DNA from: a phage
Assembly: GCA_033286805.1 (NCBI GenBank)
Contig: GCA_033286805.1_4727.1
Direction: 5' to 3' (one strand)
Length of the DNA stretch: 64,000 bases
Shown: piece by piece, positions 21,748-49,714 of the stretch
Layout: every line of letters begins with the position of its first letter
Position numbering within the stretch: the stretch's first letter is position 1
The notes under the pieces: model-generated
The model's database searches: none
The model's input: only the letters and a program-made list of their open reading frames with translations
What the model was told of the DNA's origin: nothing
Position numbers and translations under genes: made by a program

Positions 21748-21772
21748 TCACCTAGGTAATATAGCCGTGAAA
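21748..21772. promoter_or_regulatory. conserved 25-bp intergenic motif, copy 1
   Basis: CACCTAGGTAATATAGCCGTGAAA, near-identical to the motif at 49690-49714; 66-90 nt upstream of minus gene start 21682; adjacent to hairpin GGTGAAGC..GCTTCACC. Confidence 0.3.
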
Positions 21773-21790
21773 ATTAATGTATTAACCTAT

Positions 21791-22747
21791 TCACGCTTTT
21801 GCTGAGTAGGGTTGGATCTCATTAATTCGTTTAACCACAACCTCAGGGAAAAGTTTGAGTATCTCATCAGGTGGTATCGCACCTTCTGTCCAACGATAAC
21901 GTTCAACCATCTCGATGCGTGGACTCCCTCCGACGTCAGCGATACGAAAGATGCAGGCGATGCCTAAATCGAAGCATACGCTGTAAATATCTTCCGTACC
22001 TCCTTTATCTGCAAGTATTTTCGCAAAATGCTCGTTATCAGGAAGAATGGCTAAATTACGGATACACCAAACATTATTCCCCATTTCTTCAAGTTTTGGG
22101 TAGGTTAAAGTGTGCCCGTATTGTGTTAACCATCGATGATTTTCGAGGTAGAAGTCCTTATCTCCGGGTCGATAACTCCGTAACACCGCCGTGTAGAAGA
22201 GATTGGGCATATCGAGCAGTTCTTGAATCGTTGGACCCGTATGCTCCCAGAGACAGATTTGTTTACGGTCTATATCGTAATCTGTGACGTTACTCACCTC
22301 CCAACTTATCGTAAGTTCATCGGCAACATGCCAACCTAAAGCCTGTTCACCACCAAGCAGATTAACAATGGCTGTTATTTCATACTTGTCAAATACGCCT
22401 AAATTACGCGGCGGCTGCATCGTACGTAATGGCTCCCACAGCACACTGTAATCATAGAGCAAATGGCGACATAAACTTTTTGTTAGAGGTGTCTGTTCAG
22501 TGAACAGTGGAAGAATCACCGTATCCAATAACGGGCGTAACGGATGACCATTCGGTGGTAACGGGGCAGCCAGCCGACCTCCTTCTTTGGGGTAATCGAA
22601 ACCAAACCCGTAACGCTCCGAAATGAGTGCAATCAGCACTTTTGCTACGCGGTTACGTAGCATGCGATGGATGTCATCACTGTAACTGAATTTCGGTTTA
22701 TTACCGCAAACGAAGGTGAAGTATCTGGGCGTTAGCGCAGCCATCAT
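21791..22747 (-). CDS. hypothetical protein
   Basis: 318-aa ORF. Confidence 0.5.
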   Translation of the reverse strand: MMAALTPRYFTFVCGNKPKFSYSDDIHRMLRNRVAKVLIALISERYGFGFDYPKEGGRLAAPLPPNGHPLRPLLDTVILPLFTEQTPLTKSLCRHLLYDYSVLWEPLRTMQPPRNLGVFDKYEITAIVNLLGGEQALGWHVADELTISWEVSNVTDYDIDRKQICLWEHTGPTIQELLDMPNLFYTAVLRSYRPGDKDFYLENHRWLTQYGHTLTYPKLEEMGNNVWCIRNLAILPDNEHFAKILADKGGTEDIYSVCFDLGIACIFRIADVGGSPRIEMVERYRWTEGAIPPDEILKLFPEVVVKRINEIQPYSAKA

Positions 22748-22754
22748 CTTTCCC

Positions 22755-23201
22755 TCAATCTAAATAGTACGTGATGGATAGGTCTTTTCCATCGAATACG
22801 ATATCCGTGCAATCGTGGATCGTCGGTAATACCATTTTTGCTGCTATTGGGACGTATGCCTGCAGTTCCATGAAGTTATTCATGCGGAACGCACGACGTA
22901 CCATCAGCGGTGTTAGTGTAAACGTTACGCTGACGTTACCGCTTGGGAGCAGGTGCATTATCGCATGCCCGTGATCGCACCAGCAATGGTTTTCGATCCA
23001 TCCGGTGTAAATCAGAATATCTTTATCTTCGTCGTAATAAGCAATGCCGGTCTGCTTTAAGTGGCTGGTAAATCGAGAGGCTTGCTCGTAGCCTGCACGC
23101 AACATTCGAGCAACCAGTCGAGTATTGTTGGCGATTCGATTCTGTTCGTTGGTTTTTGTGGTTTTGAAAATTTCGATACGTTCTGCTTTTGTAATTTGCA
23201 T
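22755..23201 (-). CDS. hypothetical protein
   Basis: 148-aa ORF. Confidence 0.5.
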   Translation of the reverse strand: MQITKAERIEIFKTTKTNEQNRIANNTRLVARMLRAGYEQASRFTSHLKQTGIAYYDEDKDILIYTGWIENHCWCDHGHAIMHLLPSGNVSVTFTLTPLMVRRAFRMNNFMELQAYVPIAAKMVLPTIHDCTDIVFDGKDLSITYYLD

Positions 23202-23283
23202 GATTACTGTCCTTTTGAAATATGTTTAGATAAGGAGGATTTACCGGGTATTAAAAAGTTATTTGGTATGTAATGTTTTTTTT

Positions 23284-23883
23284 TTACTTAGGTTCCAGTA
23301 TTGGTCCGAACAACCAGAATGTCAGACGCTGGTAAACCTGTTCGATGACTGCGGCTTCTGTTTGCTCTTCTAGCGCTTTCCCTTTCTTATGTTGTATTTC
23401 TGGCGGGATGTCGCCGTTGTAAACATACCCTGCTGAGAAGTCCCACGCCAGCCGTTTACCGAAAGTAGGTAAGAACACCTCTTCGAATCGGAACGCTTTC
23501 GAATTCCAATGAAGCAGCTGATCGGATTCAACATGTAAAGCTTTATTACGTTTGCTTGGCATGTTTCCGAAGTACTGAACGATAGCTGATTTCATAACCC
23601 GATCTGCGAAGTCTTTGGCTTCGACCTCATCGAGGGGAGGCAGACGATGCGATAGATTCAGCTTGCGTTGTTCAACATCTATCTTACGCATCGCTTTAAT
23701 CAAATCACCAGGAACGATTTTACCCTTATGGCCTTCCTGTCGGTGTATGAAACACCCCTGGAATAGCACGCAAAGTTCTTGAGGTGCTGTACTTTCCATT
23801 CGTCCGTAAGCAACGATCACCGAACGACGACGATCAATAACTTCGCGGATAAACCGCGGCTCAGTAATACTCACCACTGTCAT
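23284..23883 (-). CDS. hypothetical protein
   Basis: 199-aa ORF. Confidence 0.5.
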   Translation of the reverse strand: MTVVSITEPRFIREVIDRRRSVIVAYGRMESTAPQELCVLFQGCFIHRQEGHKGKIVPGDLIKAMRKIDVEQRKLNLSHRLPPLDEVEAKDFADRVMKSAIVQYFGNMPSKRNKALHVESDQLLHWNSKAFRFEEVFLPTFGKRLAWDFSAGYVYNGDIPPEIQHKKGKALEEQTEAAVIEQVYQRLTFWLFGPILEPK

Positions 23884-23927
23884 TTAAAGCCCTCTTTATC
23901 TTTTTCCATTTCTCTTTACATAACCAC

Positions 23928-24653
23928 TTAAGACGTTGCCATCTTATCTTCCAGAGACTTCTTCGGTAAACCATGGATAACTCCTTCCGGGGTTAAGAAC
24001 ACACAGTCTGGATTCTGCGTTCGCGAACGGTCTTCTGGGCTGTTCAACGAGAACAGCAACGCAGAAATACCTTTTGTCCGATTTAACGTTGCGACGATCA
24101 CATCAAGCTGCCGTAGCGCATCCGATACCGTTCGATGAGGAACGATTCGCGACTGTTTGAAGCTGGCTAACCGCCAAGTCTCGAACAAACAACGCAGTTT
24201 AAACACGTCGGACGGAATAGCTGTAGATCCCTGTTCGATAACCTCAACCCGATCAGCTTCAGGATAACCTACAGCAACCGCACTAAAGTGTCTTACCCCA
24301 TTATGAAAATCATTGATAGACGCTTCGGCGTATTTACATACCGTACCAGAAACGACCATCACTTTTGCTAAACCGCGATAATTGATCGTTAACGGAATAC
24401 GAAATACACGTAAAGCATGTTCCGGATTTAATGAGACGTCATTCACTTTCGCAGATACCAGCGCACCTCGTTCATATCGAGCTTTGAACGGCAGCCCATT
24501 ATAAACGGGGTTGATTACAACGCCCCCTGGGGAGGCGTTAGCGTTAAGATGAGTGTTAAGCCAATCGGATACTTCCTGCCTGCTGGTTACGATTAACATA
24601 AAACGGTCCTCCATTTCTTTTCCTTCATTCATGGCGCATATCTTCCAAATCAT
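23928..24653 (-). CDS. hypothetical protein
   Basis: 241-aa ORF; 29-bp overlap with the upstream gene. Confidence 0.5.
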   Translation of the reverse strand: MIWKICAMNEGKEMEDRFMLIVTSRQEVSDWLNTHLNANASPGGVVINPVYNGLPFKARYERGALVSAKVNDVSLNPEHALRVFRIPLTINYRGLAKVMVVSGTVCKYAEASINDFHNGVRHFSAVAVGYPEADRVEVIEQGSTAIPSDVFKLRCLFETWRLASFKQSRIVPHRTVSDALRQLDVIVATLNRTKGISALLFSLNSPEDRSRTQNPDCVFLTPEGVIHGLPKKSLEDKMATS

Positions 24654-25275
24654 CCTTTTGTTTTGTAAATTCTGATTGCTTGCGATAAACCTCCCATGAG
24701 TCGTATATACCGTAAAAGTTCAAATGGCGTGCATTTAAGTTCACAGTAAATTCTTCCACAGAGGCAAAATCCGAACGAAGCATCGAATGGAAGGTGTCAT
24801 CTCCAGTGCAGCCTCCGTATCCTTCACCCTGATAGACCAAAAGCTGGTGAGGTTGGATACGTGCGGCAACCAATGCAGCTTGTGGTTCGTCGTAAGGTGG
24901 CCATGACAGTAGAATAACGTCGTACTGTGAAAGATCGATGTTTGTGTAGTCGGCTTGCTGAATGTCCTCGATAAACGGGTGGGGATGTAATTCCGTATCG
25001 TAAGCGGTAATGTCCTCAACACCAAGTTTACGCAACACATAGGTCAGGTAACCTGTCCCACAACCCAGGTCAGCAACACGTCGCCCGTAACAGATGTTCG
25101 CTAACTGGAGTGCGGTATCCATGGTTAACAACGACCATCCAACGTGCTGGGTATATTCTTCACGGACAATCCATTGTTGATGGTGCGTCATCGGTTCTAA
25201 GATAGCAGCAAGCTGCTGGTACGGCAACGGCATTTTGGTTTCGCCTTGCGTGAGTAATGCGATAACATCGTTCAT
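24625..25275 (-). CDS. SAM-dependent methyltransferase-like protein
   Basis: Motif I VADLGCGTGY and SWPPY (D/N/S-PP-Y/F-like amino-methyltransferase motif). Start set at MNDVIALL (ATG 25273-25275) because the longer ORF runs into the upstream hairpin; an in-frame ATG inside TTATG at ~25296 is an alternative. Confidence 0.5.
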   Translation of the reverse strand: MNDVIALLTQGETKMPLPYQQLAAILEPMTHHQQWIVREEYTQHVGWSLLTMDTALQLANICYGRRVADLGCGTGYLTYVLRKLGVEDITAYDTELHPHPFIEDIQQADYTNIDLSQYDVILLSWPPYDEPQAALVAARIQPHQLLVYQGEGYGGCTGDDTFHSMLRSDFASVEEFTVNLNARHLNFYGIYDSWEVYRKQSEFTKQKDDLEDMRHE

Positions 25276-25298
25276 TTTGTTTCCTTTTATCGGCATAA

Positions 25299-25319
25299 GC
25301 CCTCCCATGTCGGGAGGGT
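25299..25319 (-). terminator. stem-loop
   Basis: GCCCTCCC / GGGAGGGT stem with TTATGCC following on the minus strand; between genes 25324..25752 and 24625..25275. Confidence 0.45.
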
Positions 25320-25323
25320 ACGA

Positions 25324-25752
25324 TTATTCATTTTCAATAACTTTAAGATTCGGTGTACCGAGCGTTTTCTTCACCAACGCCTCAGCGACGCGTTTCTCGA
25401 TGAAATCGGTCGCATTGCTTCCGTCTATCGTACGCATATCACCACGGAAATTGTTGAAGACCATAAACAAGTCACAACCGTCGATAGGTATCGCAAGATC
25501 ATAACTGACTTGTGATGCGGTGAAATGGACACCCACGACAACGGCGGGAACGAATTTAACCGCTGTGTTATCTCCTTCTTCTCCGGTTCCGAACGGAAGC
25601 TCAACACGATCACCGATAGAGAACTGTGAGACATCATTAATCGCGTGAGTTAGTGCGATTCGTTGCATGTCGGCGATCTTTTCCTTATTCGCGTCGCAAG
25701 GTAGGTCCAAGACTTCTTCCAACGTGAAGAATTTACGATCGAACCAGCTCAT
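25324..25752 (-). CDS. hypothetical protein
   Basis: 142-aa ORF. Confidence 0.45.
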   Translation of the reverse strand: MSWFDRKFFTLEEVLDLPCDANKEKIADMQRIALTHAINDVSQFSIGDRVELPFGTGEEGDNTAVKFVPAVVVGVHFTASQVSYDLAIPIDGCDLFMVFNNFRGDMRTIDGSNATDFIEKRVAEALVKKTLGTPNLKVIENE

Positions 25753-25753
25753 G

Positions 25754-26287
25754 TTAAGCTCCTTTGTGTTTTACGGACGATGTTAACCAGGACGATCTTA
25801 CCGTGAAACCCTCAGACTCGTAGAACGCCTGGGCTTCAGCGTTATCAGCACGAACATCCAGACCAATAGAATGCCCGCCGCATCGGTAAGCGATGTTGCG
25901 CGCTTCATTCATCAAGGCATGACCGATCCCACGTCCGCGATATTCGGGTTTTACAATAATCGATGTAACGTCATGAATGCCCATATGGCTCTCTGTATTC
26001 ACTTCCAAGAGGCCTACCGGTATCGAAGCGATAGCATCGATCATAACGACCAACATTGCAGTATCTGGTAAACGCTTTTCTAATTCTAAAGCATCGTACT
26101 CGCGTTTTAAATCGGGGATATTCTCAAACATAAACGTGGTAGCCCATGCCTCTGATTCTACATCGTCGAGAATACGGTACAGCTCACGAATCTGTCGTTT
26201 ATGTGGGTAAAGGTGTGGATCGGCAGCCGTTGAGGCGATAACGCAATAGAACTGTCGTTCATTAATAACTACTGTTTTGATGCTCAT
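25754..26287 (-). CDS. GNAT-family N-acetyltransferase
   Basis: Acetyl-CoA binding motif VKPEYRGRGIGHALMNEA and C-terminal AQAFYESEGF. Confidence 0.6.
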   Translation of the reverse strand: MSIKTVVINERQFYCVIASTAADPHLYPHKRQIRELYRILDDVESEAWATTFMFENIPDLKREYDALELEKRLPDTAMLVVMIDAIASIPVGLLEVNTESHMGIHDVTSIIVKPEYRGRGIGHALMNEARNIAYRCGGHSIGLDVRADNAEAQAFYESEGFTVRSSWLTSSVKHKGA

Positions 26288-26790
26288 GCTAAAATTCCCT
26301 CATTACCTAACAGTCGATTACGATGACGTCGGTACATTTGACAAAGTGTTGTGATTTGATAATGTTTGTTGTAACGTACCTCGATACGTTTTTGCACCTC
26401 TTTCCATGGAAGTTTATCGTATTGCCGATAACGATGGATTTCATTTAACATACGAAGACGAGTAGGATCGGTGTTCTTTATCGTCGTGAGCTTCACACGT
26501 TGATATCCACGCTGTAGTCCTGATTCGGAATACGTGACGTCAAACTCATCTTGAATGATGGTAATGATCTCCCGCCACCGACGGTTCTCGCCGTCACGTA
26601 AATGGACAACCCGCGATAAGATATCGTTCCGATTACGATGACTCAGTTTAATGTTAAGCATTGAAGCAATCGCGCTAATTGCTCTCTGACTCCGTCCTAA
26701 CGCTTCACCTATTTCTTTCGATGTCATGACGCCCGCGTTTCGGCGTATGAATGCGATTTCGGTTGTTGTGTATTCTTTACCTGCTGCCAT
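26284..26790 (-). CDS. Myb/SANT-like HTH protein, tandem paralog 1 of 6
   Basis: Modules YTTTEIAFIRRNAGVMTSKEIGEALGRSQRAISAI and WREIITIIQDEFDVTY shared with the five upstream ORFs; ATG verified at 26788-26790. Confidence 0.5.
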   Translation of the reverse strand: MAAGKEYTTTEIAFIRRNAGVMTSKEIGEALGRSQRAISAIASMLNIKLSHRNRNDILSRVVHLRDGENRRWREIITIIQDEFDVTYSESGLQRGYQRVKLTTIKNTDPTRLRMLNEIHRYRQYDKLPWKEVQKRIEVRYNKHYQITTLCQMYRRHRNRLLGNEGILA

Positions 26791-27254
26791 TTCTTACCAC
26801 GTGTGTTATAATAGTAACGCTGACAAAGATGTGTGTGACGGTACTCCCGTTTGAACTCGACGCTGATAATGCGAGCAACTTCTCTCCAGTTAACTCCTTC
26901 ATGCCGAAGTGCTGTAATACGGTCTGAAATTTTGCACCATTCATCTGGGTCGTATCGTCGTAGCTTGAGTCGTCGTATTACGGAGGCGACACTCGCTCTC
27001 GATCGGCCAAGATGATTTGACAGTTGTTTAACCGAGTATCTGTGGATATTGTCGCGAATATAGGAAATCTCGTTGTTCGTATATGCCTCATTGGTTCTCG
27101 ACGAAGGGAACAGCATATACAACTTATTCTTAATCGCGCTTTCTGTGCGTTGAAATACAATAGCCAGATCACTAACCGGTGGTCTGGGTATCTGATCCGC
27201 GTAACTCTCGAGGCGTGAGAGTTCCTCATCTGTCCAGCGACGGTATTTGCGCAT
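26724..27254 (-). CDS. Myb/SANT-like HTH protein, tandem paralog 2 of 6
   Basis: Start set at MRKYRRWTDEELSRL (ATG 27252-27254, preceded by AAAGGAG). Modules YTNNEISYIRDN..SVKQLSNHLGRS and WREVARIISVEF. Confidence 0.5.
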   Translation of the reverse strand: MRKYRRWTDEELSRLESYADQIPRPPVSDLAIVFQRTESAIKNKLYMLFPSSRTNEAYTNNEISYIRDNIHRYSVKQLSNHLGRSRASVASVIRRLKLRRYDPDEWCKISDRITALRHEGVNWREVARIISVEFKREYRHTHLCQRYYYNTRGKKWQQVKNTQQPKSHSYAETRAS

Positions 27255-27729
27255 AGGCAACTCCTTTGTTTTTCGTGTAGTAACACCAACGTTGATACAA
27301 CGCATGTTTATTCGTTGTAATCCCAAATTTAACAACAACGTCGTATGTGATAACATTCCAATTTTGGGTAACGTTAAGTCGTTCCGCGATAAACGCGATA
27401 ATCGCTTCCCGTTCTTGCTTGGTGAGCGCACGACGAATTCCATTAAGCCGTATAAACTGACGAACCGAGTCATACGAACGGTTTAAATCGTACGCAATCT
27501 CACGCAGCGATTTTTGTTTGATTACGGACTTGATGTACGCGCGTTCTTCTTCCGTATAAGGTCGATGCTTTTGGCGTTGACGTATTCCCAAACGTCCCAG
27601 ACGCGCGTCGATGCTGGCGCGTGTTCGTCCTGTCCGTTGTGCGATTTCATCAATCGTCATCGATGTGTTTAAGTACAGATGCGTGACGTCTTTCAGCTCG
27701 TCGTCACGCCATGGTTGAGATCGTCCCAT
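27226..27729 (-). CDS. Myb/SANT-like HTH protein, tandem paralog 3 of 6
   Basis: PWRDDELKDVTHLY; YTEEERAYIKSVIKQKSLREIAYDLNRS; WNVITYDVVVKF. ATG verified at 27727-27729. Confidence 0.5.
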   Translation of the reverse strand: MGRSQPWRDDELKDVTHLYLNTSMTIDEIAQRTGRTRASIDARLGRLGIRQRQKHRPYTEEERAYIKSVIKQKSLREIAYDLNRSYDSVRQFIRLNGIRRALTKQEREAIIAFIAERLNVTQNWNVITYDVVVKFGITTNKHALYQRWCYYTKNKGVAYAQIPSLDR

Positions 27730-28207
27730 CTTGTATCCCTCTTTTCTTTCTATGATGCCACCAACGCTGATAGACAGCCTGCTTCGTACGTGTTATACCG
27801 AAATGCGCATTAACCCGTTCAGCAATGTGGTGCCAATCCTGTGTTTCTTCCAACAATGTATCAACGAAGGCTACGAAGATCTTAGTATCAGCCTCGCTTA
27901 ACCGCTTGAAACCATGACGGTGTGCTATCGTTCTAATACTGTTTGGATCCCTGTTTAAATCGCGTGCGAGTTGTTTGTAACTTTTGTGTTTGCAGTGTGC
28001 TCTGATATATTCCAACTCATCGACACTGAAACGTTTATGCGGTTTACGACGTTCAACATTTAAGTATATCAACCTCGATTTAATTGCACCGTACGTTGTT
28101 TCCATGATTTCTGCGATTTCACGGATTTTTAATTTCGGGTGACGATAGTACAATTCCAGCAACTGTTCATCATCCTTACGATTCCATCGTCGTACTGGAG
28201 GTTTCAC
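27704..28207 (-). CDS. Myb/SANT-like HTH protein, tandem paralog 4 of 6
   Basis: RRWNRKDDEQLLELYY; FSVDELEYIRAH..SYKQLARDLNRD; WHHIAERVNAHF. First codon at 28207 appears to be GTG, so the start is uncertain. Confidence 0.45.
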   Translation of the reverse strand: MKPPVRRWNRKDDEQLLELYYRHPKLKIREIAEIMETTYGAIKSRLIYLNVERRKPHKRFSVDELEYIRAHCKHKSYKQLARDLNRDPNSIRTIAHRHGFKRLSEADTKIFVAFVDTLLEETQDWHHIAERVNAHFGITRTKQAVYQRWWHHRKKRGIQDGTISTMA

Positions 28208-28220
28208 AACGAGATTTCTC

Positions 28221-28688
28221 CTATTCTGCGCGTTTTAATGCTTGAGTGTAGTAGAGGCTATGAACACCGCTTAACGTGTAATGGGTGTTAAATTCGTTAT
28301 TGATGATATTCCGTATTCTCTCCCAGGTGTTATTCTCTTTTCTAAGGGTGTGTATTCGATAATAAATCATCTCTCGACGTTGCGCTTTGCATGCAACAAT
28401 ACCGTAACGGTAGCAGAGTTTAGCGATTGCATCCACGCTACGATTGAACATCACTGCGGCTTCTTTTACGCTATGCGTCTTAAGATAATCAGCTAACATC
28501 ACGCGTTCTTCGAAACAGCAATAGCGGTGACGCGACGTGAGTTTCCAACGCTTGCGATTACGGTTAATTCGACCTTGAACAGAGCCTTCTGTTCGGTCAA
28601 GCCGTGCCGCAATCTCTTGCATCGGGATACCGTTTCGGTACAGAGTAATCAATATCGCGTCTTCTTCGGGTGTCCAGTCCTTGACCAT
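28221..28688 (-). CDS. Myb/SANT-like HTH protein, tandem paralog 5 of 6
   Basis: DWTPEEDAILITLYRNG; CFEERVMLADYLKTHSVKEAAVMFNRS; WERIRNIINNEF. ATG verified at 28686-28688. Confidence 0.5.
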   Translation of the reverse strand: MVKDWTPEEDAILITLYRNGIPMQEIAARLDRTEGSVQGRINRNRKRWKLTSRHRYCCFEERVMLADYLKTHSVKEAAVMFNRSVDAIAKLCYRYGIVACKAQRREMIYYRIHTLRKENNTWERIRNIINNEFNTHYTLSGVHSLYYTQALKRAE

Positions 28689-28700
28689 AGTGCCACCCCA

Positions 28701-31391
<2,691 letters not shown>

Positions 31392-39924: not shown

Positions 39925-39936
39925 CCATCAATCAAC

Positions 39937-40485: not shown

Positions 40486-40537
40486 AATAGAACCTCATGA
40501 TAATAGATAATAGAAATGATAGATAGTACAGCAAAAT

Positions 40538-40561
40538 GAGGGGGTATTATCCCACCCCCTC
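40538..40561 (-). terminator. stem-loop terminator
   Basis: GAGGGGG / CCCCCTC stem followed on the minus strand by a U-rich stretch. Confidence 0.5.
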
Positions 40562-40571
40562 GCAGGGATTA

Positions 40572-41105: not shown

Positions 41106-41179
41106 GTTTTATTCCTTAGTAGTCCTAGTAGTAGTATTGAGGAATTTCACCTCATTAGATAGTCTATTTTGGTAATGTT

Positions 41180-41479
41180 TTACTGAAACAAGACATTAAA
41201 TTCGACGAGATACCCATCGGATCTATCACCACGATATCTGTTGCAGAAAACACCGAATTTCATCAAAAACACACATAACTCTTCGGCTTTGTATAGCGGA
41301 ATACGATTTTCGTCGAGCAGGGGGCACTTATGGCTAACCCGCTCCGACGAATCAACACAACACAAATAAAGAAGGAACCGAACGATGGCTCGGTTCTTAG
41401 TGAAGCTCTCGAATTCACCTGCGGTTCTGAACTCATCGAGGAGCTTTGTCGTTTTCTTCAATCGTTCACGATCAAGCAT
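41180..41479 (-). CDS. hypothetical protein
   Basis: Track start is a TTG inside the hairpin; ATG at 41477-41479 (MLDRERLKK) preceded by GAGG. Confidence 0.45.
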   Translation of the reverse strand: MLDRERLKKTTKLLDEFRTAGEFESFTKNRAIVRFLLYLCCVDSSERVSHKCPLLDENRIPLYKAEELCVFLMKFGVFCNRYRGDRSDGYLVEFNVLFQ

Positions 41480-41501
41480 GTTAACCTCAATACGAACATA
41501 A

Positions 41502-41533
41502 CCCTCCTCCAACCCGTCAGGGAAGGAGGAGGG
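41502..41533. terminator. GC-rich nested stem-loop
   Basis: CCCTCCTCC / GGAGGAGGG 9-bp stem around loop AACCCGTCAGGGAA; near-copy of the element at 1956..1987; TTATGTT follows on the minus strand. Confidence 0.45.
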
Positions 41534-41542
41534 GATATGCCG

Positions 41543-41857
41543 TTATTCTGTTTTCGGTGTTGAACCGTTCTTCTTGAAGTCGGATTCGTATTTCACGTTA
41601 GAATCGAGAACCTCACGAACGGTTTTATCCGTACAACCACGGGCGATGTATGCATTAAGATCGTCGCGTAATTTACGCATCGTTGTTTTATCCGCATCAG
41701 AAACATCTGACTTGGTAAGACGGAATGCGATTGCATCACGAATTTTATTCAGCGTTGCTGGGTTATTACGCTGCTCTGCAAATACCGCTTTGATGAATGT
41801 ACCGCTATCTTTCGAAGCGATGGCTGCATCAAGAATCTCAATATGCTTTTCAGACAT
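41543..41857 (-). CDS. hypothetical protein
   Basis: 104-aa ORF. Confidence 0.45.
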   Translation of the reverse strand: MSEKHIEILDAAIASKDSGTFIKAVFAEQRNNPATLNKIRDAIAFRLTKSDVSDADKTTMRKLRDDLNAYIARGCTDKTVREVLDSNVKYESDFKKNGSTPKTE

Positions 41858-41908
41858 CTTCTTTCCTTTAATAAACGATCATCGTCATATTCATTGCGCA
41901 GGACGCTA

Positions 41909-43162
41909 TCACTTCGGAAGCTTAGACACCGCCATGCTTCGCGCCATCGCAACGTCATACGCATCCATGATTGCATCACCGATAGCGGTATGACGGATCA
42001 ACGGAATACCCATATCTGGATACTCTTTGGTGCCTAAGATGGATACCGGTTTGTCTTGATATGCGGCAATCATCGAACGAATATCCTGAACCTGGTTATA
42101 ACGGCAGATTGGTTTGAAGCCTGCCTTACGGAACCAATGTTCTAATTGAGGCCAATCTGTTTCACCACGAGCAAGATAATAGAAGGTATCCTTACCGTAG
42201 TAATCAGTAAGCACATCACGAATTGTGTTAACAAACACGTTTACTTCGGTGATGGCTTCTTTATAACCCACCACCTTACAATGTTGAAAACAATAGTCAC
42301 GCGCTTCCTTCGGTGCTTTGGTTTGCCACCATTCTACTGTTGATTCACTGATGCGACCACCGTCAGCGATTTGACCATGAATGTCAGGGAAGATATCTAT
42401 ACGCGGGCCGTTAATAACAGATTCTGGGTTAGCTAGATCGAAGAACACCATACCGATTTCCAGCAGTACCCCGTTCTTTTCCAGACTGAGATTCTCAACA
42501 TCCAGACAAAAAGCGGGCTTCTCTACCGTTGAAAAATCAAAGCGTCCCTCATATCGTGGTGCTAGCTTAGCACCAAGGAACGTCTCTTGGATGAACTGGG
42601 AGAATGTTATATTCTCTGCTACTAAATCAATACCCAATTTACTTAGCAAAGGTATAAGTTCACGGTAGTTCTGCTTAATTAGCAACATTACTTGGTCGTT
42701 GACACAACAACTAATTGAGTAAAAGATATAAAAGATATCTAACGGTTTGTATGGAGCCTCAAAAATATGTTCCTGGAACGATTGGGCCAGCGCTTTATGT
42801 GTTTCCTCACGATGATTCATCAGTCGGTAAATAGCGCAACGCAGATAATGTCGAAGTGTTATCTCGTGAAGATGCGACGTATCTTCTTGAAATAACGTCA
42901 TGAAACCGTGATACGTATAATACTCTCCTCTTTTAATTTCTTCGTGGAGTTCTTTGTTCCCCTTTATTTCTTCTGGTGTTATCGGGTCGATCTGATCATG
43001 GATAATGTTGAGTAGATCGTCGCTGTGTACCTTAAACAGTTTTTCAGCGTCAAGATTAGGTAATGTCGCAATTGCTGCGTACATTAATGTTTCTGCGGGA
43101 TTAAGTTCTTTATTGTCGATTGTGATGGTTAAAGCCATTTTATTATACCTCATCGAAATCAA
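41909..43162 (-). CDS. putative 3'-5' exonuclease-domain protein
   Basis: 417 aa; C-terminal half has DEDDh-like motifs (FCLDVENLSL; IRHTAIGDAIMDAYD); N-terminal half unassigned. Confidence 0.45.
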   Translation of the reverse strand: MISMRYNKMALTITIDNKELNPAETLMYAAIATLPNLDAEKLFKVHSDDLLNIIHDQIDPITPEEIKGNKELHEEIKRGEYYTYHGFMTLFQEDTSHLHEITLRHYLRCAIYRLMNHREETHKALAQSFQEHIFEAPYKPLDIFYIFYSISCCVNDQVMLLIKQNYRELIPLLSKLGIDLVAENITFSQFIQETFLGAKLAPRYEGRFDFSTVEKPAFCLDVENLSLEKNGVLLEIGMVFFDLANPESVINGPRIDIFPDIHGQIADGGRISESTVEWWQTKAPKEARDYCFQHCKVVGYKEAITEVNVFVNTIRDVLTDYYGKDTFYYLARGETDWPQLEHWFRKAGFKPICRYNQVQDIRSMIAAYQDKPVSILGTKEYPDMGIPLIRHTAIGDAIMDAYDVAMARSMAVSKLPK

Positions 43163-43163
43163 A

Positions 43164-43505
43164 TTAGTTCAGTTCTGGTTTATTAGCAGCCAGACCAAGT
43201 CCAGCTAATATCACGTAGTCGTACCAAGTTTTTACTTTTGCTTTCGCTTCATCTAAACTATCTGCGTTGATGTGCTGAAACTCATCGTTGACTGGGAAAG
43301 GTAAATCGCAGTCGTAGCTGGTATAATCCTTCCAACCTTTCCATTCGATAGTTAAAGAACCAAAAACGGTCTCAGCGACAACATGGTTATAGCGACAGTT
43401 TTCACATGGCGTACGCTCTTCCGACCAAACAAGCTCATGCTGCGCTAAAAGTTGTTGTACGACCGATAACGGCTGCTCTTCATTAAGTTCGATACTGTCT
43501 ATCAT
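43164..43505 (-). CDS. hypothetical protein
   Basis: 113-aa ORF. Confidence 0.45.
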   Translation of the reverse strand: MIDSIELNEEQPLSVVQQLLAQHELVWSEERTPCENCRYNHVVAETVFGSLTIEWKGWKDYTSYDCDLPFPVNDEFQHINADSLDEAKAKVKTWYDYVILAGLGLAANKPELN

Positions 43506-44098
43506 CGCATACCCTCCTTTTCCTTATCGTAATCACTGCAAATATTGACAAACGCCGTATTATCAGACAGCCTGCTGACCATCTGACGGATTGCGGCCAA
43601 CGGTTCAAGTTTAGGATTGATTGATTCACCGGTCAACGCGCTTATCGCTCGTGTGATCTCAACCAAATCAACGTTCGGGTCTTTGTCATCAATAATGAGT
43701 AAACTCTTCGCCGGTTTCTGACGACGTTTGATGATCAACAAATACGTGATGAGGTTCTCACGCCAAGCGTCAGAATCCAGATTGCGTATCAGGGTTAACG
43801 CACGACGTTCTTCCGCCCACGATGGTTTCTCACGGATAACAGGCATGTAAGATAATTGCTCAGCAAGCCCTTTCAAGCTGACACGGTTGGTGCCGCCAGG
43901 ATGCTCGCTAATCCGCAACATCTCGGTTAACAGACGGACATAGGCGGCTGTTGTCGAAACACCCCTCAGCGGCAGAAACACATTATGTCCTGGAACCCCA
44001 TCGTGACTCAGCGGTGCGATATACGCCATGAATCGCCGAATATCATCATCGGTCTGTTCTCCAGCAACGAACTTAAACGCTTCACGTAAAACGCTCAC
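43502..44098 (-). CDS. hypothetical protein
   Basis: 198-aa ORF. Confidence 0.45.
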   Translation of the reverse strand: MSVLREAFKFVAGEQTDDDIRRFMAYIAPLSHDGVPGHNVFLPLRGVSTTAAYVRLLTEMLRISEHPGGTNRVSLKGLAEQLSYMPVIREKPSWAEERRALTLIRNLDSDAWRENLITYLLIIKRRQKPAKSLLIIDDKDPNVDLVEITRAISALTGESINPKLEPLAAIRQMVSRLSDNTAFVNICSDYDKEKEGMR

Positions 44099-44384
44099 TA
44101 TGAAGTCTCCTTAATGTTTCTTGCATACGTAGTCTCTCCGGCAGGTACAGACGTTTGTATAGATCAATTAACAGATAACGCATAACAGAAGCGACCACCA
44201 GGTATTCACCTTCAGCTTCCGAATAACGTATCATGTTAATTGGGTAATTCAAATAAGAATAAGAAAAGAGATCATCGTTGGTAAGGTGATGATCTTCAAG
44301 ATACTGACGAAACAATTTTGCTAAGGCATCGTACTCCATTCCGTAGTAACACAACGACACCTGTCTTGCAGATAGTCGTTTCAT
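44082..44384 (-). CDS. hypothetical protein
   Basis: 100-aa ORF. Confidence 0.4.
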   Translation of the reverse strand: MKRLSARQVSLCYYGMEYDALAKLFRQYLEDHHLTNDDLFSYSYLNYPINMIRYSEAEGEYLVVASVMRYLLIDLYKRLYLPERLRMQETLRRLHSERFT

Positions 44385-45223
44385 GCTGGGTTACCTTTTA
44401 GTTTTCCACGTAACATGTCGACAACGCGTGAGGGATCAGAAATAACATTGGCGATAAGATGATCGATAGGTAGGTCGAGAATGATATTCTTCAGCTGGAA
44501 AGCCGTATCTTTACGACGCACGCCGTAGAACACGCCATCTTTAAACACAACCTCGTACGAAATGGGGAGCTGGCTAATAACCGTGTTAGCGTAATCACCC
44601 AACCACATCGACCCCGCCATCAGATGCGCACAAACAGCATGACTAATACGCACATCTTTGTTCTTCCGGTTAACGTCTTTGGTTTTCGACATGGTAACCA
44701 GAAGCTCACCGATCTTACTCAGCATATCGTCGTATACCCCAAAGAACTTAATCAGTTGTCGGGCACCTAACGATATATATGTTTCTCGTGGTAAGACACA
44801 ACACACCTGCGGTAACGTTCCAACACCATAGACACAACTGTGTGGTGATAATGGAAGCAAATCAGCAACCGCGTTCTTGATGTTGTTATACTCAACGATA
44901 TCGTTGAACGGTGAAAGACCTTTCGTAATCGGTTTATCAATCGCCACATCGAACTCCGCGAACGTCCATGCTGCTTTACGCGGTTCCCCTTTCTGGTACG
45001 GTGGAGCCAGTACCGCGACAACACGAAGTCGATGTTCATGGGTATCACGTAGCTTAAGTTGGATACCCTCACCGTCACCCTCACGCACAAGTGAGTAGCG
45101 GCTTGCGCAGTCATCACATACCACCGTTGGTTCGTGTTGACCGTATGCTGCAAGCATCGGTTTACTAAGATCTTTATCACAGTGTTTACAGCGATGATCC
45201 TGTTCCTGATAACTGATTTTCAC
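44381..45223 (-). CDS. hypothetical protein with N-terminal Cys4 zinc-ribbon-like motif
   Basis: CKHCDKD ... CDDC near the N-terminus; 280 aa. Confidence 0.5.
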   Translation of the reverse strand: MKISYQEQDHRCKHCDKDLSKPMLAAYGQHEPTVVCDDCASRYSLVREGDGEGIQLKLRDTHEHRLRVVAVLAPPYQKGEPRKAAWTFAEFDVAIDKPITKGLSPFNDIVEYNNIKNAVADLLPLSPHSCVYGVGTLPQVCCVLPRETYISLGARQLIKFFGVYDDMLSKIGELLVTMSKTKDVNRKNKDVRISHAVCAHLMAGSMWLGDYANTVISQLPISYEVVFKDGVFYGVRRKDTAFQLKNIILDLPIDHLIANVISDPSRVVDMLRGKLKGNPA

Positions 45224-45238
45224 ACCGAGACCCCTTTG

Positions 45239-46195
45239 TTAATGCAAGACACGATCTGCTGGAATTATCGAGGCATTGCTGTCGGACAGATTCGTCGCTT
45301 TACGATCAGGACTGAATCGACGAGCGTTCTCTTCATGGTAGTTGACGGGGTTATCCTGTTTTAACAGTTCCATTGCCTCATCAAACGTTAGTTCCCGAAA
45401 TCCTCTTGGATAGAGGAACAGGGGTTCATCAACATCCAGCCCTTTAACAAACCCGTGTGACAACCAGACGCTACCATCAGCACTGTAAAGAACCGGCTCA
45501 ACGTCATAATCCAAGACGTATTGATACCAGTAATTAAACAGTTGGGCGATCCATCGATTACGTAATAAATAATCGATTACAACCGCACTACGCACGCTGT
45601 GGCACCAGCCGATCTTACCATCAACTTTCTGCAACAACGTACCCTCATTTGCTTGATGAATAACCGCATTAAATAACCACGCGAGATCGGTTGCGAAAAG
45701 TGCGGCTTCTTGAATATCGCTAATGTAACGCACGGGTATCGTCAGATGCGTGCGGTAATGCGACATCGCCTCTTCGTAGTTGTCTCCTTCGATGCAGAGA
45801 GTCCCGTTTGGTGACAGATGTCCCTGATTCAACGACTGACCAATATAAAGATCAGCGATCGCGTTAATATATTCGACGGTGCCCAAGGTTAACTCAGACA
45901 TAAAAGAATCGACATCAACAGCCATCGATGTGCTGGAAACAAACGGATTGGTTGGGCGAGTTGTATTAGAGAAAATAATCGACCAAATCGCTTCGTGTTT
46001 TTCATCCGATGGCATAAACGAAATATGGCGTTCCGCGCTATTATCGACAACAAATACCTTTACGGTTTTCAAGCAGTTAGTACAAACATAGCACGTGTTC
46101 GGCAACGGCATATCCGAAAACATATCGTAACGAATAGATGCCAGCGAAATGTCATGTCCGCAATGAGGGCATGTCGTATCAATAAGCGTTTTCAT
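45239..46195 (-). CDS. hypothetical protein with N-terminal Cys4 zinc-ribbon-like motif
   Basis: CPHCGHD ... CYVCTNC near the N-terminus; 318 aa. Confidence 0.5.
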   Translation of the reverse strand: MKTLIDTTCPHCGHDISLASIRYDMFSDMPLPNTCYVCTNCLKTVKVFVVDNSAERHISFMPSDEKHEAIWSIIFSNTTRPTNPFVSSTSMAVDVDSFMSELTLGTVEYINAIADLYIGQSLNQGHLSPNGTLCIEGDNYEEAMSHYRTHLTIPVRYISDIQEAALFATDLAWLFNAVIHQANEGTLLQKVDGKIGWCHSVRSAVVIDYLLRNRWIAQLFNYWYQYVLDYDVEPVLYSADGSVWLSHGFVKGLDVDEPLFLYPRGFRELTFDEAMELLKQDNPVNYHEENARRFSPDRKATNLSDSNASIIPADRVLH

Positions 46196-46425
46196 TATTG
46201 AATTCCTTTTGATAAGAATAACTGAATATCGGTAAACTGTTCTTCAGGAACATCGTCAGCAGCCGTTAGAACCTTAGAGCCATGTTCATTGAGGTAAGCT
46301 TCCCGTAGACAACGATGACGTCGATTGGCTTCCTGGAACTCAGTGTCCGTCATGTAAACCAGCGTAAACTTCGAACGTTTATTCGGATTGTATCTCTTAT
46401 TACGTTTCTTTGGTTTCTTCGCCAT
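46195..46425 (-). CDS. hypothetical small basic protein
   Basis: Start taken at MAKKPKKRNKRYNPNKR because the longer ORF runs into the upstream hairpin; coordinate approximate. Confidence 0.4.
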   Translation of the reverse strand: MAKKPKKRNKRYNPNKRSKFTLVYMTDTEFQEANRRHRCLREAYLNEHGSKVLTAADDVPEEQFTDIQLFLSKGIQ

Positions 46426-46438
46426 AATAGCCTCGTGA

Positions 46439-46464
46439 AGGTGGATGGATACACCCATCCACCT
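46439..46464. terminator. stem-loop
   Basis: AGGTGGATGG / CCATCCACCT 10-bp stem immediately downstream of gene 46474..46995. Confidence 0.4.
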
Positions 46465-46473
46465 TCCTCCATG

Positions 46474-46995
46474 TTAAAGTGCGTTCAATTCTTCAGGTGT
46501 ACGTACAGTACGCGTGTTGGGATCAACCATTGCTGGCACACCCGCTGGACATTTACGGACATCGATCCGCATCTCCGGTTCGATCGGACGAACGCGATAC
46601 GTTTTGCCATCATCGGTTAACACCGAAATGGTCAACGCTTGGTTCAATTCACTAACGAAGTTCACCAAACGTTGTTGTCCGCCCTTCGACCAGAAGTTAA
46701 GATCGGTTTCTCCATTGAAATAACTGATTCCATCAGCGGTTCCAATCGTGATTTTAACGATACCCGGATAGTCACGAAGAAGAGGTGCCTGATAACCTTC
46801 ATCTTCCGTATCCAGTTTTACCCACACGCCTCCCGTAGACAAACAGTTAACTTCCAAGGCGGTTGGTGCGCTGACTTCCGCCGATGACCAGGTATACATC
46901 GTGCCTAGTTTAGCGTGTCCGGTTTCCAGCTCGCTGTAATCCCAAGCATGTGCTGATGCCGTAACAAATAAAGCCGCAAGAAACAACTTTTTCAT
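46474..46995 (-). CDS. hypothetical secreted protein
   Basis: Signal peptide MKKLFLAALFVTASAHA; 173 aa. Confidence 0.5.
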   Translation of the reverse strand: MKKLFLAALFVTASAHAWDYSELETGHAKLGTMYTWSSAEVSAPTALEVNCLSTGGVWVKLDTEDEGYQAPLLRDYPGIVKITIGTADGISYFNGETDLNFWSKGGQQRLVNFVSELNQALTISVLTDDGKTYRVRPIEPEMRIDVRKCPAGVPAMVDPNTRTVRTPEELNAL

Positions 46996-47050
46996 TCTTT
47001 TCGATTCCTATTAAAAGTGACCGATTTCTGTGGTCGAGATTGCTAATAAA

Positions 47051-47512
47051 TTAATTCCGGTTTTGTTTCCGTATTGCACGGTTACGTTTACGTTCTTGGT
47101 CTTTGACTGTACCAAGAAACTTCTTTAATTCTGACGGTTCGAGTGTACCCTCACGTACCACACCGTTTTGTTCGATATGGTACGACCAATAACCAACTTC
47201 AGCCGTTAAGGATAACGTTGTCGGTTGTTCGTCAGGTAACGATCGGGGTGAGAAAATAAAGAGTAATTCAAAAGGCGTTTCTCGGCTGATGGTGGGACGG
47301 ATACTAACGTCAAGACCCTCCCATCGCTGAGGTTTAAATATTCCTCCAGCAGCAATGATTGTCTCCGAGCGTTGATCTACAAGCTCGGCTAATTCACGAT
47401 CATCGTTGAAATAAATATCGTGAAGAATATCTGTGTCGATAAAAAACCCGCGTTCCAAATCGTGACGAACAATGGAATTCTTCATTCTGCTGCCTTTGTT
47501 GTTTGTTTTCAT
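47051..47512 (-). CDS. hypothetical protein
   Basis: 153-aa ORF with basic C-terminus. Confidence 0.45.
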   Translation of the reverse strand: MKTNNKGSRMKNSIVRHDLERGFFIDTDILHDIYFNDDRELAELVDQRSETIIAAGGIFKPQRWEGLDVSIRPTISRETPFELLFIFSPRSLPDEQPTTLSLTAEVGYWSYHIEQNGVVREGTLEPSELKKFLGTVKDQERKRNRAIRKQNRN

Positions 47513-47561
47513 GTCCTATACGAACACGAAAAACCGTTAATTTTTACCATAACCACATGCG

Positions 47562-47837
47562 TTAAAATTCCACACCGCGACCCGTCATCGACGAAGGAAC
47601 CGCGCGATAATAGAAGTAGATGTAATGGTCACGATGGCTAAAATAGTTTTTGCAAGCATAGAACTCTCCAGATCCAATGAATGATTTAATACGTGTAACT
47701 TGAGGGTGTCGTGCGATTAACGCCTGTATGACGATTTCCATTTGGTGTGCGCTCAAACCAGGTCGAGCTGCAACATGATAATGAAGCTCCCTAAGAAATC
47801 GTTTCCAGGGATCAGGTTGTGTCGATGATCGAGACAT
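47562..47837 (-). CDS. hypothetical protein
   Basis: 91-aa ORF; ATG verified at 47835-47837 with AAGGAG upstream. Confidence 0.4.
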   Translation of the reverse strand: MSRSSTQPDPWKRFLRELHYHVAARPGLSAHQMEIVIQALIARHPQVTRIKSFIGSGEFYACKNYFSHRDHYIYFYYRAVPSSMTGRGVEF

Positions 47838-47874
47838 CTTTATCTCCTTAACGGTTGCTGGTAACGCGGCATAA

Positions 47875-47894
47875 ACCCTCCCCGAAGGGAGGGT
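47875..47894 (-). terminator. stem-loop terminator
   Basis: 8-bp stem ACCCTCCC / GGGAGGGT with CGAA loop; TTATGCC follows on the minus strand. Confidence 0.45.
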
Positions 47895-47903
47895 GATTAA
47901 CGA

Positions 47904-48461
47904 TTACTCCATCCATACTTCTTCGTCGTAATGATTTTCTATCGCATTACGCCAAAAACGCACGGTGTCCAAACTAATCGGCGCATAAAAATGCTGATCA
48001 ACGCCGACATTAAGTCCGTTGGCCTTCGCTAACATACAGCGATGAATATGACCGAATAGATTGAAGTAGCCTGGGTTTCTTTCGCTGGGCTTATGGCATA
48101 GCCAGTAGGATTCGTCATTGCTAATCGGCAACACCAACGGATGTTCATAAACCGCAGCAAACCCCATACCGAGCAATTTATCACGCCATGCTTCAAAGCT
48201 TAATCCTGTTGCTTTGTATGCGTCTTCGTCCCAATTCCCCAATACCAATTGAACCTGGATATCAGAACGAATGGCTTCCACGAACTCGAACTTACCCCAA
48301 TCACCTAAATGCCATAACACACTGTTCTTTGGAAGCTTGTTGATGGCTTTCAGCATATGCTGGTTCATATCGGCGACGCTTGCGAACGGACGGCGTGAAT
48401 ACGTCCATGTACGCTCGCTATCAAAATGGGTATCCGACATAAAGAAGATGGACGGGGTCAT
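47904..48461 (-). CDS. calcineurin-like metallophosphoesterase
   Basis: Ordered motifs FMSDTHFD, LWHLGDWG, LVLGNWDE and FGHIH match the D-x-H / GD / GN-[HW]-D/E / GH-x-H phosphoesterase signature. Confidence 0.65.
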   Translation of the reverse strand: MTPSIFFMSDTHFDSERTWTYSRRPFASVADMNQHMLKAINKLPKNSVLWHLGDWGKFEFVEAIRSDIQVQLVLGNWDEDAYKATGLSFEAWRDKLLGMGFAAVYEHPLVLPISNDESYWLCHKPSERNPGYFNLFGHIHRCMLAKANGLNVGVDQHFYAPISLDTVRFWRNAIENHYDEEVWME

Positions 48462-48940
48462 TGATCTAATTGCTCCAGAAATGCACGACCCGATTTACTT
48501 GCTTTTAAATGCTGTTCTGCGGAAGTAAGCAGAAGATCGGTTGGTGTATATGCAGCGCTACCTTTCCACGCTGTTTTCAGTTTACCCTTTTCGATACTGA
48601 ACTGAATCAGTTGTTGGGTACCGAAGTTAAGCGTGTTCGTCGCGGCGCTAAATACACCACCCATCATGCTGTAACCAAAGACTTTCACGTTTTCCGTGTA
48701 GAAGTCATTGTCGATCAATTTGTTCTGGAGCTCGAGTTGGTCGGACGGCAGCAATCCCCCATCGAAGACGCTTAAAATACCAGCCAGGCGATACATACTC
48801 ACCTTTCCTGAAACGCCCACCACGTAGTTGCCGTACACGGTTTCTTCCAGTTTAGCAACAACGGTGCGATCGTCGGAGGTTTTCATCGAAACCTCAATAC
48901 CATCACCAACTTCTGTTAACGTTAAATCAACGATACTCAT
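48458..48940 (-). CDS. hypothetical protein
   Basis: 160-aa ORF; 4-bp overlap with the downstream gene. Confidence 0.45.
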   Translation of the reverse strand: MSIVDLTLTEVGDGIEVSMKTSDDRTVVAKLEETVYGNYVVGVSGKVSMYRLAGILSVFDGGLLPSDQLELQNKLIDNDFYTENVKVFGYSMMGGVFSAATNTLNFGTQQLIQFSIEKGKLKTAWKGSAAYTPTDLLLTSAEQHLKASKSGRAFLEQLDQ

Positions 48941-48962
48941 TCATTATTCTCCGCTTTCATGT

Positions 48963-49649
48963 TTAACACATGATTTCACCATGTTTCTTTTCAACATACG
49001 TATAAACGTCATCCAAATAAGCAATGAGTTTATCACGATCCGCACAGAGCGATTTAATCATCGCAATCTCTTTCATATAAAGCTGCTGACCTAACGCCGG
49101 ATAGGTAATCCAAGCGTAGCCGTCAGGCGCAAATTTAGAAATAAGATAATCGGCGGTTTCCTGTAATGCGAACTCTTTGCTCATCTGGCCGTAACGATGT
49201 TCGATTGCACGGATACCAAAACGTTCGCTATCGAGACGACCCATATCCGCCAGACGAAGCACCTGAGAAGCAACAGAACTACGTGGACCAGAGTGCGAGG
49301 CACGATGTTCAGCAATAAGTACGCGTATCTCCTCGATGTCTTCCGGTGTGAAAATATCCTGCTCGTTACGAAGCAGGATAACCGATGCACGAATACCACC
49401 GATAAGGTGGTGGTATGTTCTGTTTTCGTGGCAAGCGATATCATGCATAAAAGCAGCGGTTAATAGACGACGACGTTCCGTGGGTCTGATGATCCCAACC
49501 ACATCAGCAAGTTCATTTGCCAGTTCAACAACAGCAAGCACATGTTCTTCTTGATGTGCAAGATCGTTCTTCCGAATATTTTCAATTACTTCAGCGCGAG
49601 TTTCCTGAGATAAGAAATTTAAACAATCCAACGAATATAAAGATTTCAT
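48963..49649 (-). CDS. HD-domain phosphohydrolase
   Basis: His ... His-Asp pattern (HQEEHVLAVVELANEL ... AAFMHDIACHE) typical of the HD superfamily; first gene of the minus-strand run. Confidence 0.55.
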   Translation of the reverse strand: MKSLYSLDCLNFLSQETRAEVIENIRKNDLAHQEEHVLAVVELANELADVVGIIRPTERRRLLTAAFMHDIACHENRTYHHLIGGIRASVILLRNEQDIFTPEDIEEIRVLIAEHRASHSGPRSSVASQVLRLADMGRLDSERFGIRAIEHRYGQMSKEFALQETADYLISKFAPDGYAWITYPALGQQLYMKEIAMIKSLCADRDKLIAYLDDVYTYVEKKHGEIMC

Positions 49650-49689
49650 CGCACGTACCTCTTTGAATCTATTAATAAATTTTCTTTAC

Positions 49690-49714
49690 TCACGTAAGTA
49701 ATATAGCCGTGAAA
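49690..49714. promoter_or_regulatory. conserved 25-bp intergenic motif, copy 2
   Basis: TCACGTAAGTAATATAGCCGTGAAA in the divergent region between minus gene start 49649 and plus gene start 49858; matches 21748..21772. Confidence 0.3.

Follow-up and report, generated by a model that had tools for sequence, protein, structure and literature searches.

The DNA analysed here is a 64,000-nucleotide (nt) stretch of a phage genome (NCBI GenBank assembly GCA_033286805.1, contig GCA_033286805.1_4727.1), referred to below as the window, in which a conserved 25-nt motif stands at two intergenic sites, each ahead of a minus-strand gene, and probably serves as an early promoter. In two 4-kb stretches compared around the sites, the window is 96.3% and 97.6% identical (96-98%) to Escherichia phage vB_EcoM_Goslar, and it corresponds to approximately 92-157 kb of the complete Goslar genome, which comprises 237,307 bp. 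Goslar is known from the literature as a nucleus-forming jumbo phage of the Chimalliviridae. Two homologs of subunits of the non-virion RNA polymerase (nvRNAP) are encoded within the window, and the genes of the virion RNA polymerase (vRNAP) lie outside it; all five vRNAP subunits have been detected in the virions of Goslar by mass spectrometry (2026 preprint). Thus, both of the multisubunit RNA polymerases (RNAPs) that go together with phiKZ-like early promoters, virion and non-virion, are present. Copy counts for DNA beyond the window were obtained from Goslar and other close relatives.

The features at the two sites, with positions relative to the predicted transcription start, are as follows.

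21748..21772, minus strand: site 1, predicted complete promoter element TTTCACGGCTATATTACCTAGGTGA, predicted -23 to +2
21756..21763, minus strand: core of site 1, TATATTAC, a -10-like box (predicted -14 to -7) with the same sequence as the published core of phiKZ
21749, minus strand: predicted start of site 1, the G of TGA, placed by the AR9 rule and leaving a 5′ untranslated region (UTR) of 67 nt
21365..21682, minus strand: first gene downstream of site 1, encoding a 105-aa protein, ortholog of Goslar_00105
49690..49714, minus strand: site 2, predicted complete promoter element TTTCACGGCTATATTACTTACGTGA, predicted -23 to +2, at a strand switch
49698..49705, minus strand: core of site 2, TATATTAC, predicted -14 to -7
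49691, minus strand: predicted start of site 2, the G of TGA, placed as for site 1 and leaving a 5′ UTR of 42 nt
48963..49649, minus strand: first gene downstream of site 2, encoding an HD-domain hydrolase, ortholog of Goslar_00159 (Pfam HD, E = 4e-8)

Read on the plus strand, the extended 25-mers are TCACCTAGGTAATATAGCCGTGAAA (21748-21772) and TCACGTAAGTAATATAGCCGTGAAA (49690-49714). They agree at 23 of 25 positions (92%), slightly fewer than the roughly 24 of 25 claimed in an earlier note on this DNA, which had located the repeat correctly but had quoted the first string, at its proper position, without the leading T. The exact common core measures 17 bp (GTAATATAGCCGTGAAA, at 21756-21772 and 49698-49714 on the plus strand); it is the longest exact direct repeat in the window and has exactly two matches there, with no third match even if three mismatches are allowed. 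The placement given in the same note, 40-90 nt upstream of a minus-strand gene start with the second site at a strand switch, agrees with the gene map. Site 1 occupies a 108-nt gap between two minus-strand open reading frames (ORFs), 66-90 nt upstream of the ATG at 21682, and site 2 lies in the divergent gap ahead of a plus-strand helicase gene, 41-65 nt upstream of the ATG at 49649. Downstream of site 2, the HD-domain hydrolase gene is the first in a long series of minus-strand genes reaching in the direction of site 1; the 105-aa protein encoded downstream of site 1 has no Pfam match.

Within the window alone, such a repeat is only suggestive, because, when 200 random sequences of equal size and composition were drawn from a first-order Markov model, 23 of them (11.5%) also held an exact 17-mer repeat. 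This frequency is what speaks for a chance repeat without function. However, the match extends into the flanks (23/25), both copies fall between genes although 91% of the window is coding sequence, and 11 further copies occur in Goslar, where all 13 copies are co-oriented and belong to a published family of motifs; an explanation by chance is therefore untenable, its probability being practically nil, and the Goslar family had already refuted it.

The Goslar family was collected by scanning the whole genome with the 25-mer, which yielded the counterparts of the two window sites (113782 and 142785) and ten further copies, and a position weight matrix (PWM) was then built from these 12 copies. 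The building copies score at least 42.8 and the next best match scores 15, although this separation is partly built in because the matrix was fitted to the same 12 copies. The copies other than the window counterparts, including a 13th, are located as follows.

Goslar 2552, 15052, 43251, 49717, 86690, 160776, 166054, 172963, 201929 and 226680, gene strand: ten further copies
Goslar 187624, gene strand: 13th copy, with an intact core, CTACATTACCT

The gene strand of Goslar carries 206 of the 241 modelled genes, and all 13 strong copies are on this strand. According to the annotation, twelve of them are intergenic and the remaining one falls within a hypothetical ORF of 62 aa; the distance from a copy to the minus-strand gene downstream of it is 25-205 nt, and five copies occupy divergent strand switches. 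The consensus of the Goslar copies, read on the gene strand, is TTTCACGnCTAYATTACYTnnGTGA. The block TAYATTAC is invariant in 13/13 copies, with the exact form TATATTAC at both window sites, and in the entire Goslar genome it occurs 22 times on the gene strand versus once on the opposite strand. TTTC occupies the predicted -23 to -20 positions in 10 of the 13 copies as well as at both window sites, and the trinucleotide at the spacing of the predicted start is TGA in 12 copies and TGG in one. Further copies were thus found when they were sought in the genomes of relatives: 11 more in Goslar, at least nine in a 237.5-kb relative and at least five in a 183-kb relative. In Goslar, the element is present in multiple copies that are intergenic (with the one exception named above), co-oriented and located at the heads of operons.

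Site 1 has counterparts in Goslar (113782-113806) and in the uncultivated virus genome (UViG) 3300011560. In an alignment of the three genomes, the element is invariant save for a degenerate Y at -6, and the adjacent 3′ end of the upstream gene is heavily substituted. Site 2 is identical in Goslar (142785-142809) and in UViG 3300011560; the corresponding alignment is uninformative because the surroundings of this site are identical in all three genomes as well.

The strict orientation of the copies bears on two other ways of reading the element. Both window sites contain a dyad of 4-5 bp, TCAC(G)...(C)GTGA, and a regulator binding site was one of the options offered in the earlier note. On this reading, a phage or host regulator would bind an operator at the partial inverted repeat TCAC-N15-GTGA, and transcription would start elsewhere. 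However, the dyad is kept in only 5 of the 13 Goslar copies and shows no compensatory changes, and the most invariant part of the element is the asymmetric TAYATTAC. The single orientation relative to the downstream gene also argues for a promoter, because a promoter requires orientation whereas a symmetric operator does not. We consequently regard an operator as highly improbable. A comparison with phage N4, whose early genes are likewise served by a virion-delivered polymerase, leads to a similar result. The vRNAP of N4 is a single-subunit enzyme that recognizes a short DNA hairpin, whereas the Goslar motif has no conserved hairpin (dyad in 5/13 copies, as above); for a hairpin promoter of the N4 type, its DNA arms are too short and the loop is too long. 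No inverted repeat kept across the copies, as would be characteristic of a palindromic operator or an N4-type hairpin, was therefore found, and no Rfam family of known structured RNAs reaches the gathering score anywhere in the window. A plus-strand reading, prompted by a terminator hairpin on the plus strand (about 49789-49826) some 75 nt beyond site 2 that hinted at a small transcript from this strand, was rejected because every member of the family is co-oriented with a minus-strand gene.

According to a review, every RNAP-encoding jumbo phage has a motif of this kind upstream of its early operons; where transcripts have been profiled, the motif corresponds to the early-promoter consensus, has an AT-rich core near -10 and must be recognized by the vRNAP (PMC7598289). 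The core of the phiKZ early promoters is TATATTAC, and promoters have been predicted for N1M2 (TBYAWWWWWTTTCARRYAKATATTATYWAAGTGWA, in a shorter form TTTCARRYAKATATTATYWAAGTGWA), OBP (...TTTYARRYAKATATTATYWWADTG, with the layout TTTCARRYAKATATTATYWAAGTGWA shared by N1M2 and OBP), 201phi2-1 (...TTTRARR_BTATATTACDWHDGTG, also TATATTACDWHDGTG) and EL (WTTTYAAACCTACATTATY) (PMC7058600). In AR9, the early consensus was mapped by differential RNA sequencing (dRNA-seq) and primer extension as AAATATATATTAT-(6N)-G+1 (also written TATATTAT-(6N)-G+1), and the transcripts of phiKZ and phiR1-37 start 6 nt downstream of the element (PMC5312081). The precedent of AR9 leads one to expect that single changes in the core would abolish activity.

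Judged by its sequence, the Goslar-group element fits the published phiKZ-like early-promoter layout position by position. An AT-rich core of the form TATATTA(C/T) is present, as is a T-rich element upstream of about -19; in phiKZ, too, a T-rich block precedes the early promoters upstream of -19. The early (vRNAP) promoters of phiKZ share the same 8-nt core, TATATTAC, and the T-rich upstream block, and, like those of Goslar, they are intergenic and stand ahead of operons on the dominant strand of a genome that encodes virion and non-virion RNAPs. They differ in number (28-32 copies in phiKZ versus 13 strong copies in Goslar) and in the extent of conservation, which is longer in the Goslar group, reaching 25 nt, with CACG (-20 to -17) and, at the start, GTGA among the conserved parts. 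The layout of N1M2, OBP and 201phi2-1 matches that of Goslar in the succession TTTCA, 4-5 nt, TATATTA(C/T), Y plus 3-4 nt, and GTG(A), although the core ends in T in N1M2 and OBP but in C in Goslar, and the former two possess a longer A/T-rich upstream tract that is seen in Goslar only at some copies (172963, 201929, 226680 and 43251). The promoters of N1M2, OBP and 201phi2-1 are themselves bioinformatic predictions. The resemblance to AR9 comprises the core, TATATTA(T/C), and the 6 nt that follow it up to a conserved G. By contrast, AR9 is a Bacillus phage with uracil-containing DNA that stands outside the Chimalliviridae, and neither the TTTCAC block nor the GTGA context is found in its element.

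The scan of the IMG/VR database with a degenerate 25-mer, from which the counts for the 237.5-kb and 183-kb relatives come, also gave one or two exact matches each in roughly twelve contigs (211-276 kb) unlike Goslar. Among these, a contig of 211,215 bp carries an exact match whose sequence fits the published EL consensus, and it is taken to be Pseudomonas phage EL. The occurrence of the exact degenerate 25-mer in non-Goslar-like contigs with the sizes of jumbo-phage genomes was counted in favor of a promoter.

The presence of the element in these contigs also bears on the idea that the sites are host promoters of the sigma-70 type, with TATATT as the -10 hexamer and the RNA polymerase of E. 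coli transcribing these genes early. TATATT does agree with TATAAT at 5 of 6 positions, and site 1 contains TTAATA-16-TATATT, which matches at 9 of 12 positions; a statement in the earlier note that sigma-70 spacing is lacking thus holds for site 2, where there is no match, but not for site 1, where hexamers at a spacing of 16 exist at the level of chance. The single match at site 1 equals the number expected in shuffled sequences, however, and what is conserved over the 13 copies lies at -23 to -18 and in the TGA at +1, not in the -35 region, so that no pair of -35 and -10 hexamers, 16-18 nt apart, was found to be conserved in the family. Furthermore, phages of the phiKZ group develop without the host RNA polymerase, and the same 25-mer recurs in contigs unlike Goslar, among them the one presumed to be Pseudomonas phage EL. 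A sigma-70 promoter is thus very unlikely.

We consider it probable, at roughly 85%, that the two sites are the only strong copies in the window of the early promoter of the Goslar group of jumbo phages, that is, of the signal at which the vRNAP starts transcription after injection. A phage-specific promoter read on the minus strand, with TATATTAC as its core, was the other option of the earlier note, and it has gained support from the co-orientation of 13/13 Goslar copies and the fit to the published consensuses. What was observed directly is the family itself, with its uniform orientation, its position between genes and its agreement with consensuses from the literature; which polymerase reads the window sites, that they act early and at which nucleotide transcription starts are what we infer by analogy with other phages. 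Read along the gene strand, the proposed element would have the form TTTCACGGC-TATATTAC-yTAnGT-GA, in which a T-rich block at about -23 to -20 would be followed by the -10-like TAYATTAC at -14 to -7, a 6-nt spacer and TGA, with the G as +1. The start sites at G 21749 and G 49691 on the minus strand (Goslar 113783 and 142786) are predicted because the 6-nt spacing between core and G that holds in AR9 was applied to them. The packaged multisubunit vRNAP would bind the element upon injection of the DNA and initiate on the minus strand without the host RNA polymerase. Transcription of the long leftward block, in which the HD-domain hydrolase gene comes first, would then be set off at site 2, and site 1 would start or reinforce transcription of the gene for the 105-aa protein and of those that follow it.

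One copy of the element in Goslar is located 66 nt upstream of the chimallin gene (chmA), Goslar_00189, the protein product of which is identical to PDB 7SQT. Indirect evidence in favor comes from a preprint on Goslar infection (Armbruster et al.), in which chmA mRNA is reported to be present 5 min after infection and chmA is also transcribed when infection halts at the vesicle stage. The authors display the start site of chmA in a sequence whose first base is 91 nt upstream of the ATG, and they give 175 of 249 Goslar genes as detected at 5 min.

Several points weigh against the assignment to the vRNAP. The preference for this enzyme over the nvRNAP or the host RNAP would derive entirely from similarity to the promoters of other phages, and the start positions at both window sites are predictions rather than mapped 5′ ends. 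As of the AR9 paper of 2017, no vRNAP of this group of phages had been purified (PMC5312081). Only 13 strong copies are found in Goslar versus the 175 genes detected at 5 min, which implies either very long transcripts or other early start signals. In addition, the weak sigma-70-like match described above lies within site 1.

The first of these points is related to another possibility, namely that a promoter of the same kind serves the nvRNAP, which would place it in the middle class, or serves both phage polymerases, and not the vRNAP alone. One phiKZ gene carries both early and middle motifs, and several Goslar copies stand ahead of genes with structural genes as neighbors, such as the copy at 43251, which lies downstream of the gene for the major head protein. 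Nevertheless, the element bears no resemblance to the middle and late motifs reported for phiKZ (TACT near -22 and TATG at +1) and for AR9 (AACA-6N-TA/G), whereas the published early motifs match it closely. Recognition by the nvRNAP is thus quite unlikely, and an early promoter used by the vRNAP is preferred.

It is also tempting to speculate on how a vRNAP promoter of this length might be recognized and what its transcripts might carry. The 25-nt span is nearly unchanged between Goslar and the presumed EL contig, which otherwise look unrelated, and it matches the consensuses of OBP/N1M2 and 201phi2-1. The span from TTTCAC at -23 to GTGA at +1 might constitute a two-part recognition surface for a candidate specificity subunit of the vRNAP or for a co-injected factor, and stem-loops at +1 might serve as a functional 5′ tag on early mRNAs, for instance in stability or in export from the vesicle; we hold this combined proposal to be rather unlikely. 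No description of the mechanism by which a vRNAP recognizes its promoter was found in the literature consulted on these polymerases (including PMC5312081).

The stem-loop to which this proposal refers was noticed at the predicted 5′ end of the site 1 transcript.

21724..21752, minus strand: possible hairpin at the 5′ end of the transcript from site 1, GGTGAAGC, a loop of 13 nt and GCTTCACC

Its stem comprises 8 bp, and among the three related genomes both arms are invariant and the loop is variable. A stem-loop at or within a few nt of the predicted +1 is found in about half of the predicted early transcripts of Goslar, and a hairpin exactly at the predicted +1 in 6 of the 13 versus 13% of controls (p = 0.004, a post hoc comparison). 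However, the folding energy of the 13 predicted Goslar transcripts is not below that of random windows (p = 0.11), and the pattern at +1 was not replicated at sites from other lineages, where 8 of 18 carry such a hairpin versus 37% of controls. A general role of a 5′-terminal hairpin on early transcripts is thus unproven.

With regard to novelty, no published promoter consensus for Goslar was found in the literature, and the GenBank record of Goslar annotates terminators and no promoters. The promoter type is most likely one that is already known from related giant phages, which makes the finding real but ordinary; conceptually it adds nothing new, since reviews already assign such a motif to every RNAP-encoding jumbo phage (PMC7598289). 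Its practical value lies in annotation and engineering. A defined 25-nt early promoter with predicted starts would aid the interpretation of existing RNA sequencing data for Goslar, and the element could be a template for in vitro work on the virion polymerase. The consensus early promoter of phiKZ has already been used for early-expression cassettes, and the 25-nt element indicates where such cassettes might be placed in a chimallivirus of E. coli.

A further candidate copy in the window lies close to the genes for the two nvRNAP subunit homologs.

59582..59606, minus strand: doubtful third copy, core CTACATAACCT with one mismatch, 94 nt upstream of the nvRNAP gp74-like gene, PWM score 15
57488-59494: nvRNAP subunit homolog, phiKZ gp74-like (E ~1e-86)
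61566-63899: nvRNAP subunit homolog, phiKZ gp71-73-like (E ~1e-86)

This candidate was rejected as a third promoter copy: its score of 15 compares with at least 42.8 for the building copies, and it is probably a chance match because its core has a mismatch and it overlaps a degenerate plus-strand copy of an unrelated hairpin repeat.

The latter repeat is a second, GC-rich intergenic family, which is independent of the promoter element. It reads (ATAACAGCATAttc) CCTCCTCC-TTCCC-ttac-GGG-TT-GGAGGAGG, with (T)TATG behind the hairpin, and its copies are distributed as follows.

Window, about 1949-2006 (minus strand), about 41495-41552 (minus strand) and about 6420-6475 (plus strand): GC-rich hairpin repeat
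Window, about 47892 (minus strand), about 60268 (minus strand), about 18437 (plus strand), about 53517 (plus strand) and 49789-49826 (plus strand): looser relatives of the repeat
Goslar 134607, 72012, 27768, 93467, 63737, 61031, 49798 (minus strand): examples of the repeat

Goslar contains 16 strict copies, 13 of them on the gene strand, in addition to both genome ends. The two arms of the stem vary in compensatory pairs (CCTCCTCC/GGAGGAGG, CCTCTCCC/GGGAGAGG and CTTCCTCC/GGAGGAAG), which supports a real hairpin, and the annotation lists some of the copies as terminators. Immediately behind the hairpin stands an invariant TATG, which is reminiscent of the late-promoter motif of phiKZ, T(-3)ATG(+1). 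Three copies lie 35-40 nt upstream of a copy of the early promoter, and such neighboring pairs may be combined modules of terminator and promoter.

The looser relative at 49789-49826 on the plus strand is a strong stem-loop followed by a run of T (CCTCCTCCCCA...TGGGGAGGAG-TTTTT), positioned between site 2 and the start of the helicase gene at 49858. It is a terminator in the Goslar annotation; it lies about 30 nt upstream of a plus-strand gene, and no plus-strand gene precedes it. The same arrangement recurs in Goslar at 10008-10026, ahead of Goslar_00013. The stem-loop could be a structure of the 5′ UTR, or it could be a terminator for antisense or divergent transcripts. At both ends of the Goslar record (1-60 and 237254-237307), the same copy of the hairpin repeat is found, followed by a long run of A (CCTTCCCTGATGGGTTGGAGGAGGGTTATGCCGTCAAGCAAAAAAAA...), which suggests either a short terminal repeat or an arbitrary opening point inside one copy of the repeat.

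Two further observations concern coding sequences of the window. The ORF of a superfamily 2 (SF2) helicase at 54861-57491 (minus strand) encodes 876 aa versus 525 aa in Goslar (Goslar_00164), and the additional ~350 aa contain Pfam matches to LAGLIDADG and homing-endonuclease domains at residues ~353-435; this points to an intein (or a homing endonuclease in fusion) in this phage that Goslar lacks. In addition, a tandem array with a period of 120 nt (8102-9649) lies within a 1292-aa ORF at 7441-11319 (minus strand), the gene of a large tail-fibre repeat protein orthologous to Goslar_00090; the array comprises seven copies of a 300-nt register with 61-73% identity.

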